Below are positions 9,001 to 15,000 of a DNA stretch of 64,000 bases, one piece after another. Source of the stretch: Bdellovibrionales bacterium (lineage in GTDB: Bacteria; Bdellovibrionota; Bdellovibrionia; Bdellovibrionales; UBA1609). Position 1 is the first letter of the stretch; every line of letters starts with the position of its first letter. The stretch is from NCBI GenBank assembly GCA_965261545.1, contig CBDHDF010000011.1:352001-416000 (forward strand). The letters run 5' to 3'. The position numbers are program-made.

Positions 9001-12000
9001 AGGCTGGTCATGCCATTGTTGGCCATAGACTCCAAAAAACCGTCGAACTTATCAGCATTCGCTCAGGTAAAGGCATTGGAGGTTTTGTCAGCTTTAAGGC
9101 TACGGAAGGAGGACTTCCAGATCGACTCTATACCATATACGAAGTGGCCACGACTCTTGGAGGAAGACAATCCGAAGTGGAAATAGGAGCCTATTCCCTT
9201 AACCTAGGTTGGTCCTCAGACCTGAAACAAATTCAAGAGATAATTAAAAAATTTACCACTTCCAGTGGAAGGGATAAAAAACTCTTCAACAAAAGTGAGG
9301 CAAAGGGCGAGTCCGAGCAAATCTTCAAACATGCCCAAGAACTTGCAAGCAGTCTATTGATTGAAGAAAGGTCCTCTGTAGAAGACCTACGAGATCTTCT
9401 CATTGGGGAATTCACAATAGACCGGGGTGAATTTAAAGCCTTTATGAGAGATCAAAAGGAAAAGGAGAATCAAAGAAGTATACAACCCATCTCAGAAAAA
9501 AGATCTGAGGCTGTGCTTAAAAAGATCCAACTACTGATAGATTTAGATGCGGCCCTATGGAGTGGCAGCGATGATTTCTTAGCACGTTTTGTGCGTGAAA
9601 AATTGGCTCCCACTCTCCGTGAACTCTCTCAAGCCAAAATAAACAAAGCATCCCTCGAAGAAGACGTCTTACAGGCTGTATCCAAGCTTATTAAACAAGG
9701 AGAAACAGAAACAATCAAAGCCCTCATTACAGAGGTCTTCACTCAAGAGGATTGGAAAAAACATGCCGCATTACTTAGACCTTTGGTTCGGACAGGTCAC
9801 CCTGAAATATTACAAGTTATCAGAGAGAACCTACCTATTCATGAACAATGGTTCAAAGATATGATTCAAAGCAAAGATCCGAAAGCTAAAAAACCATCAC
9901 GTGGCGGAAATAGTGAAAGTGGTGAAAGGGCAGACCTTCAGAGTTCTTTCAAAGCAGGAGTCTTACCATGTGTTTCTGTGATCCCTTCTGGTAATAATTT
10001 GGTGAAGAGCCAATAAAATAAAGGGTGAAAGTTTTGATATGATGAATAAACAGGGAGTGAATAAACATGGGTTGAATCTTGATATGACTCCCATCATCTC
10101 AATGTTTATGTTGTTGTTATCTATCTTCTACTCGATCTCGATGACATGTTTTGTTTCCACGGCATCCACGGAGAGGGGAGAAGTCAGACTTCACCCTTCT
10201 GAGGGTATTACCGCCGATGAGTTGAGAGAGAAGATACGAGAAGTTATTGGCAAAATCCCTGAGTTTGTAGGGATACAAGAGTTGTCCAGAGAGTATGGCT
10301 TGAAGGTTTGGCTTTTTGGTGGAACAGCAGCGTCTTTTGCCCATTACGCTAAAGAGTTTCTTTTGTTTGAAAGAGGTTCAGGGGAATTTTACGCCGAGTA
10401 TTTTCAAGAAAATTCCCAGGGTCACTTGGACTACATGGATATTTTCCGTCCCACCCAGGATATGGATCTGGTGGTGGATGGACCCGTGGACAAAATTCCC
10501 GGTTTTCAAAGAACTCTCCAGGAAAGGTACCCCCATTTTCAGGGCTCCAAGGAAGCATGGGAAATCAGACCCCTTCGTGAGAACTATCAGGACAAAGTCG
10601 CTCTTCTCAACAACCCGGATTTCCTCAATCAAAATACGGACTCCCACTCTGTGGGGCTCATCGCCCTTAGTGGTGATATCAATAGTGACTCCCAAGGTGT
10701 TATCGAAAACTTCGAATTTGCTACAAGCTTGAATCTTGCCGAAAATACCAAACCTGTTAAAGATTCTGATTTTGTCAGACATTCCGATCTTGTTAAGGAC
10801 CTCTTTGACTGGGAATCAAACCACCCTAGTTTTTTGAAGGATGTGCTTGCAAGTCGGCTTCACTTTTACAAAAGTCCTCGCCACAAAACAACTTCCAAGT
10901 ACATGGAGGGCAAGAATCCTGAAATATTCTCTGTCATCAGGTATTTTATTAAACTTTTTCAGCATGAACTCCACCCCTCCCCAGAAGATCGAGAAAAGAT
11001 CTTGGAAATTATCGACCAAACTCAATTTGAAGCCATGGATCACAATGGTTATGTCTTTCGTTGGTTGGAGAAAAATGTTCCTAAACTCTTTCTCCATTCA
11101 AGAAGTGTGGAGCACACCGCCCAAATTTTAGAGGAAACGGGCTTGAAGCAAAAACTTCTTCTTGTGGGAGACCCCAAGCAAGAGGGAAGCCCTGCTTGGT
11201 GGGCCAACAAGGAACCTCTGCGAAGTTTTAAACTTGGTGAAGGGACAGGCAAAACAGCTAAGGAGCTTGGCATCACCAAGGTGGCTCATGACACCAGGGA
11301 TTTTTTCATCTATAGCGTCATCACTAGGTCTCGCAAGGGGGAGCCCAATGTTCTCAAGTCAAGGCAAGGTGTGGTGGGTGAGGCTGCGGGTCATGGAGAG
11401 GGCTTTTACACTATGGCCAATAGAGACCAGGGCTTGGGCCAAGGTTACACTGTTCGCTTCACCCTGGCCACAGAGGCTCGTGATGGCTCAGACTTCATAC
11501 TTGTTGGAGGAGTCAGGCAAGGTCAGCAAAGTCAACAAAGCCAAGGCATACTGGTGGTCTTCAATCGACGAGCCCTTCGAGTCATACCTGAAAGCATTGT
11601 GGTTTCTAATCTCCATGAGTATTTCCATATTTTAAGTCATCTCAAGGAATCAGACAAAGGGCCTTTGGAGAGACTCAAGCGAAAGATGAAATATAAACTC
11701 ACCCATTGGGCCACAGATAAACAGGATATCCAAGCAGCCATCTCCTTACTAAGGACAGAAAACAAAGAACATTTGTGGAAATCTTGGTTTTATCTTCCAC
11801 TATCTGTGAATTATCCACAATTACTAGAGACTTTTGTTAGAAGCGAAGACGGCAAATATAACAAGATTGGAGTGCATGCCTTAGCTCAACCCCACTGGGT
11901 GAAACATCCTGAGTTCATGGAAACCCTGATCGAAAAGGGAGATCAAGATGTCTTACAAGTCTTAGCCGTATTCTCTCTTTCTCAACCCCACTGGGCGAAA

Positions 12001-15000
12001 CATCCTGAGTTCATGGAGGCCATGATCAAAAAGGGGGATCAAGGGGATCAAGATGTCTTGCGGGCTTTAGCCCGACACTCCCTTTCTCAACCCCGCTGGA
12101 CGAAACATCCTGAGCTCATGGAAGCTCTGATCGAAAAGGGAAACCAAAGGGTCTTACAGGATTTAGCCCGACACTCCCTTTCTCAATCCCACTGGACGGA
12201 ACATCCTGAGTTCATAAAAGCTCTGATCAAAAAGGGGAATCAAGAGGTCTTATGGGCTTTAGCCCAATACTCTCTTTCTCAACCCCACTGGGCGAAACAT
12301 CCTGAGTTCATAGAAGCTCTGATTAAAAAGGAGAATCGATATGTCTTACGGTCTTTGGACCAACACTCCCTTTCTCAGCCCCACTGGGCGGAGCATCCTT
12401 ATTTAAAAAAACTCGTTCAAGGAAAAGAGGTGAACCTCGAAAATCTTAGAAAGGCCATAGAGGAAAAGAAACGAAACGAGCGACATCGACGATCTCTTTT
12501 AGAAGAAATAGATACAGGCTCCAAAAACCAAAACTGCCACTTAATCATTCCAAACAGGAGTCCATAACTTTTCACTGTGATTTCATTGTGGCTTTAAAAT
12601 TTTTTGAGGAAATTTTCATGTTTTTTAGTTTGAATAAAAATTCACGACTATTCTTCTGTAAAGTAGCCAAGAGGCTATTTATTTTCTTTTTGATTTCAGT
12701 GGTTTGCTGTCTTTCTGCTGCCGTTGCCAATAGGGCAAAAATCCAACTCGCTACGGTCACTGATTATGATGGAGGCGGAAGTGGCGATGCCCTTCCTTCA
12801 GAGGCCCATAGAATCACCCTCAAGGGCAATGCATCCATAGCGCCTACAGAAACACCCACGGTATCCACCATATCATCCATCACAGCCGATGAATTGAGAG
12901 AAAAGATACGAGAAATTATTGGTAAAATCCCTGAGTTTGTGGGGATACAAGAGTTGTCTGTAAAATTGCATGGCATTGCCCTCACCGATTGCATGACATT
13001 ACCCTCACCAGTTGCATGGCATTACCCTCACCAGTTGCATGGCATTACCCTCACCAGTTGCATGGCATTGCCCGCACCAGTTGCATGGCATTGCCCGCAC
13101 CAGTTGCATGGCATTGCCCGCACCAGTTGCATGGCATTGCCCGCACTGATTGGCATGACTGATTCCCCTTAGCATAGCGTCATTGATGTTCTATAAAGAC
13201 CTCCAATCTTTAACCAAGGAGGTCGAAATGAGAACAAAGATGGATCATGAGCGTTACACAAAAATAAAATCATTAATAAAGGCAAATATTCCCGACCGAG
13301 AAATCAGTCGCCGCATGAAATGCTGCACCAAGACTCTTAGAAAGATAAGACGTGGTCTTTTAACAGACCCCAAGGATTGGAAGACCCAAAGAGAAATTCC
13401 CCCTTGGTCTTACGGTATAGATTGGAAGATTATTGAGAAGGAGATTGAGGATAGGCATTGTTTAAGTGACGTTTGGGAGGAAAAATTTCTGAAGGTCATT
13501 AGCTACCCCCAGTTTACGAGGGAGTTTCATAAGCAATTTCCAAAAGCTGGCAAAAGGATTATTACCTTGCGTGATTTTCAGCCAGGCCACCAAGTTGAGG
13601 TTGATTACGCAGGATTTCAGCCAGAGTGGATCGATGAAGACCTTAATATTCATAAGGCCCATATATTTTGCTCAAATCTATGTTTCTCTCAGCGTATTTT
13701 TGCTTATGGCTCTTTGAGCGAATCTAGTGAAGATTTTCTTCACGCTCACGTTCTGATGTTTGAATATTACGGTGGGGTTCCGAGAGTGGTTGTTCCTGAT
13801 AATTTAAAGACTGGAGTGAACACACCCCATTTGTATGATCCAGAGTTGAATAAATCCTACCAAGAGCTTTTGGAACACTATGACACGGTGGCTGTTCCCG
13901 CTCGAGTTCGTCGTCCCCAGGATAAAAGCCTTACTGAGAATGCCGTGAAGCTCGTTACAAGGGCCCTCAGGTTTATGTACAGACGAGAGACCTTCACCAG
14001 TCTGGATCAAATTAATAAGGCTTTAAGGGAGGTGTGCGAGAAGATAAATGCTCGCCCTCACACAAGATTTAAGGTCTCTCGCAATGAAAAATTTCAACGA
14101 GAGGTAAAAACTTTAAAACCCTTGCCTTCTTTTCCCTACCGGTGGGGACGTTGGGAGAAGAAAAAACTCCACCAAGACTGTCATGTGAGCGTTGAATCCA
14201 ACTTCTACTCGGCTCCGTTTCAGCACCGAGGGGAGTATGTAGATGTAAAAATTGGAGTGGAGAGTGTGGAGATTTACTTTCAAAAACAGCTCCTCGCTCG
14301 CCACAAGAGGACCAAAGGTAAACTCGGAGAGTACATCACCAAAAACGAACACCTCCCGGAGCCCAGTCGCGCCTACAAGGAGGCCACTCCCCAGAACATT
14401 CTTATTCAAGCAAGTATGATTTGTAAAGAGCTTGAAAACTTCATTGAGGAGCTTTTTCAGGGTGGGACCATTGAAAATCTCAGAAGAGCTATGGGCTTTG
14501 TAAGCTCCTGTCACAAAGAAATCCAGAAAGAGGGCAAGGAAAAGTCCCTTCCTCTCATTATCAAAGCCCTTGAGGACTGCAAGCAGTGGGAGAAAAGGAG
14601 GGTTAGATATTTTCAGCAACAACTCCATTTCTATAAAGGGCAAAAAATAAAAAAGGTGAACGAGAAAATAGATCGTAAACAAGGCAACCCTTATTTGCGA
14701 CATAACGAAAATCCAAATAACCAAAGCCCCAAGGAGGTGCCAGATGGATGAAGTACAAATCAAAAACCACATGCATGAGTTGAAGCTCTATGGAATGTTA
14801 GACAGCCTTGAAGTGGCGCTGGATAACACAAGCCACAAGACTCAAGCATTGGATCTATTGAACGAGCTGTTATTTGCAGAAGTGGAGGCTCGGAAAATCC
14901 AATTCAGCCAAAGACTTCTCAAGACCTCAAAGCTGCCTCACAAGGTCAGAGGTGAGGCATTTGACCACCATGCCAAAAGGTCTATTAGTAAAAGAGAGGT

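Follow-up and report, generated by a model that had tools for sequence, protein, structure and literature searches.

Results

Organization of the locus

The window, meaning the whole 64,000-nt stretch of Bdellovibrionales bacterium DNA that was analyzed, carries an 842-aa ORF (P0001) that starts 22 nt downstream of a 1566-aa triple-AAA+/M41 gene. The genes and elements at this locus are as follows.

5316..10016, + strand: exported triple-AAA+ ATPase/M41 metalloprotease, 1566 aa (Pfam AAA, AAA_2, ClpB_D2-small and Peptidase_M41)
10039..12567, + strand: nucleotidyltransferase-ADP-ribosyltransferase (NTase-ART) gene P0001, 842 aa
12588..12958, + strand: third NTase-ART copy, leader and first helices only, which a 23-nt tandem array and an IS21-type element cut short
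12959-15577: IS21-type element interrupting the third copy

The 842-aa protein runs from a Sec-type leader through a class II nucleotidyltransferase, an ART fold and seven repeats to a terminal single-Cys tag. Both paralogues named in a preliminary description of this DNA were recovered, at C9:7358-10255 and, truncated, at C9:10317-11588; the cut copy at 12588-12958 is missing from that description. The greater part of the locus is spanned by DNA contigs, with no major conflict. As had been reported for Pfam, neither a Pfam nor an NCBIfam model covers the NTase-ART head. An INCENP Pfam row passed the whole-protein cut-off, but no stretch of it passes alone and it falls on the repeats, and it was rejected. 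PDB sequence searches returned repeat-protein matches or none.

Family size and conservation

The 842-aa protein represents a large Bdellovibrionota family, as the preliminary description held. Of 8000 candidates scored, 226 were homologues at E<=1e-5, and homologous clusters at 50% identity numbered 587, 409 of them at E<=1e-30. The family occurs in 20 of the 401 sampled genomes of the phylum (5%), and one genome can give as many as 39 matches. Scanning genome contigs with a single-sequence pattern gave zero family matches, whereas an alignment-based scan recovered the family. Sequence searches of phage, plasmid and viral contigs found no relatives; BFVD fold matches were weak (best E 0.012), with the poly(A)/PARP picture recurring. 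Among proteins of 67-261 aa, a search for free-standing ARTs gave two matches, both close family pieces. A search of the literature did not turn up the domain pairing, although key reviews or supplements could mention such a fusion. A HAD-like N-terminal extra of P0127 and an NYN-like row of P0216 were unsupported on checking.

G94, G95, Q140, D141, D143, H417, G455 and Y457 are invariant in a 145-row alignment, which agrees with the GG, Q-D-x-D, H-x-T and G-x-G-F-Y motifs noted earlier. Both domains are under purifying selection, with dN/dS about 0.15 (0.13-0.17 and 0.15 in the two domains), compared to 0.53 in the tail. The head is modeled as a rigid two-domain unit (pLDDT 89.6, pTM 0.90). 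A fixed two-enzyme head is the general pattern, but the ART His is missing from three divergent copies next to the protease, and the NTase DxD from two further ones. Coupling is therefore not obligatory, because either domain can decay alone.

The nucleotidyltransferase half

The proposed class II nucleotidyltransferase fold was supported by three comparisons. The top seven VIA rows were CCA-adding, A-adding or poly(A) enzymes (best Z 10.7, rmsd 3.9, 205 aligned), with the alignment spanning model residues 19-338. Foldseek ranks 1-12 were tRNA nucleotidyltransferases or poly(A) polymerase (best E 5e-3), and hhalign of the family against 29 housekeeping enzymes gave E 4.5e-4 with the body helix aligned.

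10201..11193, + strand: class II-type nucleotidyltransferase head, neck and partial body, residues 55-385 (VIA, Foldseek, hhalign)
10318..10563, + strand: metal/NTP site G94-G95, Q140-D141-x-D143 and third carboxylate E175, by alignment onto the GG, DxD and ExxTFR strand
10915..10953, + strand: N293-P-x-I-x-S-V-x-R301-x3-K305, standing where the EDxxR base template would be

The head, neck and part-body fold is common to class II tRNA nucleotidyltransferases and bacterial poly(A) polymerase (PF01743; PDB 4wby, 3h37, 1miv, 3aql), as are GG, DxD, the third carboxylate and the Arg after motif D. Over 145 rows GG and QDxD are 100% conserved and position 175 is 97% E and 3% D; QDxD was found in 210/210 heads and W[ED]xR in 208, the heads having been chosen by their GG pattern. 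Arg or Lys is invariant at the NTP-contact positions, and Q198, D201, S204, H282 and N293 are invariants specific to the family.

Unlike the class II enzymes, NTase-ART lacks GGxxRD (0/210 heads), RRD and EDxxR and has its GG and DxD set ~35 residues further apart. It also carries the ART in place of the C-terminal tRNA anchor, has an export leader, and is multi-copy and patchy in distribution. The EDxxR position reads N-P-x-I-x-S-V-x-R in 205/210 heads; EDxxR is kept in 29/29 housekeeping controls. The pocket is much remodeled, since the motif A Arg-Asp and the RRD of motif B are gone as well, and 70 heads gave no PF01743 row at E<=0.5. EDxxR is described in PMC2532741 and PMC8563995 as the amino-acid template that class II CCA-adding enzymes and poly(A) polymerase use, and E. 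coli poly(A) polymerase without the template Arg makes random poly(N) tails, according to PMC2532741. Because the template is replaced and the genome encodes two ordinary PF01743 genes as housekeeping enzymes, the 842-aa protein is not a CCA-adder. The earlier label "CCA-adding-like" suits the fold but not the motifs.

The ART half

The features of the second domain are given below.

11206..11598, + strand: ART-fold domain, residues 390-520 (alignment, domain model, VIA)
Within 11206..11598, + strand: H417-x-T419, N437-x3-S441-R442, E448, G455-F-Y457, D485-F486 and N509 (alignment)
Within 11206..11598, + strand: strand-5 triad position, Ile, and a private Gln-rich insert at 492-503

VIA of the isolated domain model argues for the predicted ART fold (best Z 5.9, rmsd 4.5, 99 aligned). 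The 50 rows listed, which by their titles are ART-fold proteins, include the NAD-consuming toxins MbcT, NatT and Tne2. The domain folded alone had been said to rank PARPs first; this was not reproduced, as in Foldseek 3C proteases came ahead of PARP, which stood at rank 11 (E 0.9). H417 lies in model strand 27-32 (strand 1) and Y457 in strand 68-73 (strand 2). H417, N437, S441 and Y457 are invariant, and R442 and E448 are 99% conserved.

A split beta-sheet fold, H-x-T and G-x-G-x-Y are common to the family ART and the H-Y-class ARTs (PARP PF00644, diphtheria-type, Tox-ART-HYD1/HYD2, Tpt1/KptA, DarT). The family ART differs in its hydrophobic third triad residue, its lack of a second Tyr and of a Pfam match in the main family, and in having been found only fused behind the nucleotidyltransferase. 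Across ~180 sequences the third triad position was Y in 75, F in 47, I in 19, M in 11 and E in 2, and the second-Tyr position was T in 118 and S in 19, in a register fixed by motif spacing and the L107 relative rather than by superposition. Membership of the PARP/diphtheria clade holds at the H-Y level but not for the catalytic Glu or second Tyr, and because these residues are missing we only infer that the domain is catalytic. The distant relative in L107 has the same domain order and passes the Pfam PARP cut-off (29.4 vs 26.7 bits). Atlas gave a score of 0.89 to a HYD1 cluster, and DUF3990 gave one row at E 0.14 among 70 heads and none for eight isolated ART pieces. According to published work, PARPs of the H-Y-[IYLV] type act as mono-ARTs (10.64898/2026.05.07.723553), phosphorylated ends of RNA are modified by PARP10/11/15 and TRPT1 (PMC6582358), and tRNA and rRNA are targets of bacterial ART toxins (PMC13617354).

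Leader, tail and Cys tag

Three features flank the head.

10039..10164, + strand: Sec-type leader by hydropathy, residues 1 to ~42, hydrophobic core 19-37
11785..12468, + strand: seven helical repeats of ~32 aa each (LSQPHW...), which form the family's most frequent tail class
12535..12549, + strand: terminal Cys tag C833-H-L-I-I, by Cys conservation near the C-terminus of homologues

NTase-ART proteins are predicted from the leader to be Sec-exported. The leader peptide described earlier was confirmed as a hydrophobic leader in 172/190 homologues and 0/190 internal controls (lipobox in 5, Tat in 5), calls made by a hydropathy script rather than a trained predictor. By our own script, a basic n-region, h-region and AxA-like site were present in 135/190 homologues and 0/190 controls. 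A Cys stands within the last 25 residues of 163/211 homologues, compared to a core Cys density of 0.04%, and N-terminal and C-terminal Cys tags are mutually exclusive. Neighbours carrying both leader and Cys tag also include PIN-PhoH, 2H phosphoesterase, EEP nuclease and deoxyribosyltransferase domains. Genome G000 showed no genome-wide enrichment (78 of 433 leader-bearing proteins with Cys in the last 20 residues vs 15% expected), and the tag therefore marks few genes there.

Secretins were found in 5/5 genomes examined and T6SS VipB in 0/5; VirB4 rows were weak, and a macro domain was matched weakly in 2/5. The ATP/ADP translocase family, a marker of intracellular lifestyle, appeared in 2/36 genomes, both weakly, and controls gave no match. 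Within the neighbourhoods of family genes, no translocation machine was tied to the NTase-ART gene.

The 195 tails fall into 64 clusters. Ankyrin, HEAT and FGE-sulfatase-fold tails, listed earlier from Pfam rows, are real, and lectin-fold tails also occur; the RasGEF rows, in which no stretch passes alone, and the majority of single "Ank" rows are artefacts of summing over repeats. Conserved catalytic residues are absent from the tails. FGE tails required 3 changes on the head tree vs 16.5 when shuffled, and heads at least 80% alike had the same tail in 99/102 pairs. No immunity-like gene recurs beside family genes, where the recurrent neighbours are the protease, generic regulators and transporters. 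The tails do vary, but a design of exchangeable tails and polymorphic effectors was overstated, since they follow the head tree and have no recurrent immunity-like neighbour.

The triple-AAA+ protease

The protease has a leader, three Walker A/B modules, HEAGH and a terminal Cys, with motifs conserved in nine rows. Its extra C-terminal piece resembles the NTase-ART tail repeat and matches family tails at E 4e-6. It is present in 9/20 NTase-ART genomes vs 27/381 others, a count that leaves out G039, which matched by its tail alone, and G074, which has a single AAA module, and eight of the nine genomes with both have the two genes adjacent or one gene apart. However, 30 of 33 protease loci examined show no NTase-ART partner, and the genomes with the largest NTase-ART expansions gave no full AAA-M41 match. 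The adjacency reported earlier is thus real, but the protease is an optional neighbour and not a required partner. A fusion of the two had also been described; no AAA-fused form was found among three long homologues.

Discussion

Beyond the folds, conserved active-site residues, leader, tag and distribution demonstrated above, our tentative best explanation is that NTase-ART is a Sec-exported two-enzyme effector of uncultured Bdellovibrionota, acting on RNA ends in prey or host cytoplasm. Delivery into another cell, into prey or host cytoplasm, is probable, and RNA ends are the leading candidate substrate. Since the effector needs NTP and NAD+, it would work in prey or host cytoplasm. Carrying a signal peptide, it would fold apart from the producer's NTP and NAD+, and for that reason no immunity gene would be needed. 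Once delivered into the prey or host cell, the NTase without a base template would extend the 3'-OH ends of tRNA or other RNA with non-templated nucleotides, and on that same RNA a phosphate or hydroxyl would receive ADP-ribose from the Glu-less H-Y-hydrophobic ART. This double modification could block translation, or mark the RNA for decay and free nucleotides. The variable, non-catalytic tail may decide the target, the location or the range of prey, a trafficking mark is the likely role of the single-Cys tag, and the triple-AAA+ protease may be a co-inherited effector of the same class.

Retention of the RNA-cradling neck and body of class II enzymes favors RNA ends. The explanation is also supported by the invariant catalytic carboxylates and NTP-contact Arg/Lys, the published cases of poly(N) tailing and of ARTs that modify RNA, the purifying selection on both domains, the failure to find the ART by itself, the other neighbours with leader and Cys tag, and secretins in genomes that gave no VipB. 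Charge does not decide the substrate, because 15 conserved acidic positions stand beside 17 positions that are at least 90% Arg/Lys. Against RNA ends, the up to 39 matches per genome with ankyrin, HEAT or lectin-fold tails suit protein targets no less well. The remodeled NTase pocket, the ART's missing Glu and second Tyr, its best Z of 5.9 and low Foldseek rank, and the decay of either domain on its own also count against the explanation.

If proteins were the target, the tail would pick a prey or host protein, and the head would nucleotidylate it, mono-ADP-ribosylate it or both, perhaps sequentially, with an NMP-capped ADP-ribose that is hard to remove. The 64 clusters among 195 tails, the real ankyrin, HEAT and FGE-sulfatase-fold tails, the many paralogues per genome and the tail dN/dS of 0.53 vs 0.15 all suit such a role. 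So do the nearest named NTase neighbours in the Atlas, which include Gad2 (mechanism unknown), and the GFY motif, which Tox-ART-HYD2 has as well (PMC3482391). The retained class II neck and body speak against it, as does the lack of Glu/Asp at the triad position used by bacterial protein mono-ARTs (10.64898/2026.05.07.723553), and we regard protein modification as doubtful. An enzyme of small molecules, consuming or interconverting NAD+, ADP-ribose and NTP (as an NADase, or by synthesis of adenylated NAD/ADP-ribose or dinucleotides) and so draining or signalling in the target cell, is consistent with the NAD-consuming MbcT, NatT and Tne2 matches, the remodeled pocket with its five family-specific invariants and the rigid two-domain model. 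It is nevertheless unlikely, as a soluble-metabolite enzyme needs neither long variable binding tails nor high copy number.

The missing Glu and second Tyr, the ART His lost in three divergent copies and the lack of a translocation machine tied to the gene could indicate a binding-only ART, or a protein salvaging nucleotides outside any cytoplasm (periplasm, bdelloplast or lysate). The ART invariants, its dN/dS of 0.15, the PARP-positive domain at the same place in a distant relative, and the scarcity of NTP and NAD+ outside the cytoplasm make this very improbable. If the AAA+ protease served to unfold, translocate or clip NTase-ART, forming with it a dedicated two-gene system, this would account for the co-occurrence and adjacency; such a system is improbable given the partnerless protease loci, the missing fused form and the large expansions without a full AAA-M41 match. 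That NTase-ART is a surplus housekeeping enzyme, either a CCA-adding one or a poly(A) polymerase, is backed by the fold only, and this identity is effectively refuted by the leader in 172/190, the lost template motif, the two PF01743 genes and the patchy presence in 5% of genomes.

A bolder reading, which we rate as doubtful, couples both sites on one substrate. An undescribed double modification would result, either prey RNA that carries a non-templated tail as well as ADP-ribose, or an ADP-ribose capped with NMP. The single-Cys tag, which sits at one end or the other of the mature protein, would be the address of a new route passing Sec-exported ATP-/NAD-dependent enzymes into the victim cytoplasm. 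Most of the secreted tools described for Bdellovibrionota are hydrolases. A large family of exported transferases that need NTP and NAD+, with no annotation, bears on how these bacteria shut down and strip prey cytoplasm. The two-enzyme head can be purified for direct assay of what may be a new chemistry for modifying RNA or protein, and the mutually exclusive N-/C-terminal Cys tag, common to the exported ATP-dependent protease, offers a testable handle on the delivery route.

Polymorphic toxins (Rhs, CdiA and kin; PMC3482391) are likewise secreted conflict enzymes with tandem and truncated copies. NTase-ART inverts their design, with a constant enzyme and a varying binding tail, tails that track the head tree and no recurrent immunity gene. 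Unlike AB toxins, it has no receptor or translocation domain. The Gad2 phage anti-Gabija nucleotidyltransferase (PF26128) and giant-virus poly(A) polymerases (PF19244) are the nearest named clusters by language-model features (0.88), a lead only; they have no described leader or ART, and the phage, plasmid and viral-contig searches gave no sequence match. Legionella SidE couples two catalytic domains, a PDE and a mono-ART, in one effector, and IpaH/NEL ligases join a constant enzyme to variable substrate-binding repeats. In contrast to NTase-ART, both are other enzymes that have no Sec leader and are delivered by T4SS or T3SS.

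Gene context and family distribution

P0001, an 842-aa protein joining a nucleotidyltransferase (NTase) to an ADP-ribosyltransferase (ART) domain, is encoded directly after an exported triple-AAA+/M41 protease (AAA-M41). Window features are:

5316-10016, +, AAA-M41 gene, 1566 aa; three AAA+ modules and M41 HEAGH site; a single-Cys tag at its end
10039-12567, +, P0001 gene, 842 aa; start 22 nt past the end of the 1566-aa gene
12535-12549, single-Cys tag of P0001
12959-15577, 23-nt tandem array, then an IS21-type element found in several near-identical copies

Almost every other neighbour scanned is a fragment of a transposase or reverse transcriptase, and the 30 kb covered consist mostly of IS elements. 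One full and one truncated paralogue lie on contig C9, and a third, cut copy lies directly downstream in the window. A single base of the protease gene, at window 7834, is missing from one public contig of low depth, through error or strain variation.

As stated in the preliminary description, P0001 has no Pfam match; Pfam and NCBIfam gave nothing real for its head or for 70 related heads. Among 8000 scored candidates, 226 proteins matched residues 45-560, and an exhaustive search returned 587 family clusters (50% identity), 409 of them with E<=1e-30. Records that carry a taxon name come from Bdellovibrionota, Oligoflexia, Deltaproteobacteria and, in one case, a 'Proteobacteria' MAG. Matches occurred in 21 of 401 genomes evenly sampled from the window's phylum (20 without one tail-only match), with up to 39 in single genomes, and no relative was found in the phages, plasmids and viral contigs searched. 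Copies in genomes G008 and G029 are often truncated.

On defining features, the family belongs neither to the CCA-adders nor to the H-Y-E toxins or polymorphic toxins. No description of an NTase-ART fusion was found in literature on Bdellovibrionota, CCA-adding enzymes, ARTs and C-terminal Cys tags, and passages from surveys of polymorphic toxins and of Legionella ARTs mention neither Bdellovibrio nor such a fusion. NTase-ART is a real, large, undescribed family of exported two-enzyme proteins, built from two folds already known.

The nucleotidyltransferase head

The head was modeled confidently, with pLDDT 89.6 and pTM 0.90. The best 7 matches in VIA structure comparison (best Z 10.7, rmsd 3.9, 205 aligned) and the top 12 in Foldseek (best E 5e-3) all add CCA, CC or A to tRNA or are poly(A) polymerase. 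Compared by profile with 29 housekeeping enzymes of kin genomes (E 4.5e-4), the family aligns on through neck and body, and its G94-G95, D141-x-D143 and E175, all invariant or nearly so, coincide with the GG motif, the DxD motif and the third carboxylate. Family heads have lost the Arg-Asp that follows GG, as well as RRD and the base-selecting template EDxxR. EDxxR is described as the base selector of CCA enzymes and poly(A) polymerase, where Arg loss gives random poly(N) tails (PMC2532741, PMC8563995). P0001's genome also carries two ordinary PF01743 genes. Together, the structural matches, retained active-site residues, lost motifs and PF01743 genes indicate a class II fold, probably active, in a protein that is no CCA-adder; the earlier label 'CCA-adding-like' is apt for the fold only.

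The ADP-ribosyltransferase domain

Folded alone (pLDDT 85.6), the ART domain gave a best VIA Z of 5.9. The 50 matches listed, which from their titles we take to be ART-fold proteins, include diphtheria-type domains, PARPs, MbcT, Tpt1, DarT, TreTu and RhsP2. An earlier result that the isolated domain ranks PARPs first was not reproduced, as Foldseek places a PARP only eleventh. Atlas, which ranks clusters by language-model features, gave an ART lead only (Tox-ART-HYD1 and PARP clusters at 0.88-0.89). New support for the assignment comes from one relative in genome G124:

L107:3844-8538, -, 1564-aa exported protein; divergent NTase, then Pfam-positive PARP domain

Its N-terminal part matches the family NTase profile (prob 94, E 1.3e-7), and the following domain clears the Pfam PARP cut-off (29.4 vs 26.7 bits), though it aligns with the family ART profile over just 19 columns (E 5.5e-4). 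This protein is the best bridge to canonical ARTs.

H417, N437, S441 and Y457 are invariant, and R442 and E448 are 99% conserved. Following PARP residue roles, with register set by motif spacing, Y, F, I or M occupies the third place of the triad, and the second stacking Tyr is kept in L107 and is T or S in the main family. H-Y-[IYLV] enzymes are described as mono-ARTs (10.64898/2026.05.07.723553). NAD+ use by the predicted ART is likely, short of certain. A search among proteins of 67-261 aa did not find the domain as a stand-alone protein.

Comparing the two full copies in the window's genome gives dN/dS values of 0.13-0.17 in the NTase, 0.15 in the ART and 0.53 in the tail, where repeats may be out of register. 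Some members have one decayed site: the ART His is absent in L103, L104 and L108, and DxD in L105 and L106.

Variation of the tails

The tail of P0001 has seven repeats of ~32 aa, and 195 family tails fall into 64 clusters. Of the tail domains proposed earlier, ankyrin, HEAT and the FGE-sulfatase fold are real and RasGEF is not. Two large tail classes checked had no conserved catalytic residues. Tail types keep step with the head tree, and tails are shared by 99/102 pairs with heads at least 80% alike, 329/509 at 70-80% and 414/2253 at 60-70%. The tails therefore reflect fast divergence with occasional replacement rather than cassette swapping, and the exchangeable, polymorphic design first proposed is overstated.

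The L120:4583-6130 (-) tail scores on SWIB/MDM2 through summed repeats (E 4.5e-10), with no single matching stretch. Another member, P0127, has an extra N-terminal domain (residues 1-300) whose DxD pattern is HAD phosphatase-like by eye; Pfam and PDB gave no support.

Export leader and Cys tag

A hydrophobic leader was present in 172/190 homologues and a full n-h-c pattern in 135/190, each vs 0/190 internal controls; lipobox and Tat patterns were rare. Family proteins are almost Cys-free, yet 163/211 carry a Cys within the last 25 residues, as C-x-x-hydrophobic. A stricter pattern placed the tag at the C-terminus only in 105 of 203 proteins, just after the leader only in 23 and at both in 1, and at the front in 13 and the end in 0 of 17 with an FGE-type end; in both counts the proteins are kin, not independent. 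A terminal Cys also occurs in 29/30 complete AAA-M41 homologues. Among other leader-bearing neighbours, 44/225 had a one-end tag and 0 had both (mid-protein window control, 5), compared with 20/231 cytoplasmic-type proteins. Most tagged neighbours lack a Pfam name; those named include PIN-PhoH, 2H phosphoesterase, EEP and ParB-like nucleases, deoxyribosyltransferase and peptidases. Genome-wide enrichment was not seen in the window's own genome. The single Cys, C-terminal or post-leader in otherwise Cys-poor exported proteins, is a candidate trafficking signal.

Near the protease gene, at L177:365-1936, L178:310-1833, L177:12104-14038 and L178:12119-14077, lie PIN-PhoH and 2H-phosphoesterase proteins that bear both a signal peptide and the Cys tag; they are RNA enzymes of cytoplasmic type that are apparently exported.

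Association with the protease and possible function

AAA-M41, exported with intact Walker and HExxH motifs, occurs in 36 of the same 401 genomes. The proposed link to NTase-ART holds in part: in 8 of the 9 genomes with both, the genes are adjacent or one gene apart, but 30/33 fetched protease loci lack the partner. Ten further NTase-ART genomes, searched in full, contained a pseudogene and a partial gene but otherwise no full-length match to AAA-M41. The three long homologues, a weak test, included no AAA fusion. The extra C-terminal piece of the window's protease resembles the repeats of the adjoining NTase-ART. We read the two as co-inherited effectors.

An exported NTase-ART that needs NTP and NAD+, next to an exported protease that needs ATP, would be understandable if both act in the cytoplasm of another cell. 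ORFs at 125 loci included no recurring immunity-like neighbour, an absence for which export would account. The five genomes tested have secretins and lack the T6SS protein VipB.

RNA ends are the favoured, still tentative, substrate, since the family retains the class II architecture that cradles RNA, has lost the base template, and RNA-modifying ARTs are known. Glu-less PARPs and TRPT1 are described as acting on phosphorylated RNA ends (PMC6582358), and tRNA and rRNA as targets of bacterial ART toxins (PMC13617354). Protein targets selected by the tails are a less probable alternative, at perhaps one chance in four, and turnover of NAD or nucleotides is somewhat less probable again.

An ATP-dependent protease carrying a signal peptide is itself worth separate study. 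Between the protease and NTase-ART genes of L061 lies a gene (4929-9962) whose 1677-aa product has an ABC1-type kinase domain. A second kind of long protein, with repeated AAA+ modules and no M41 match (frames of 1145-1878 aa), is found at G249:C51:23469-26579, G088:C5:5088-8102 and G226:C5:8477-11026.
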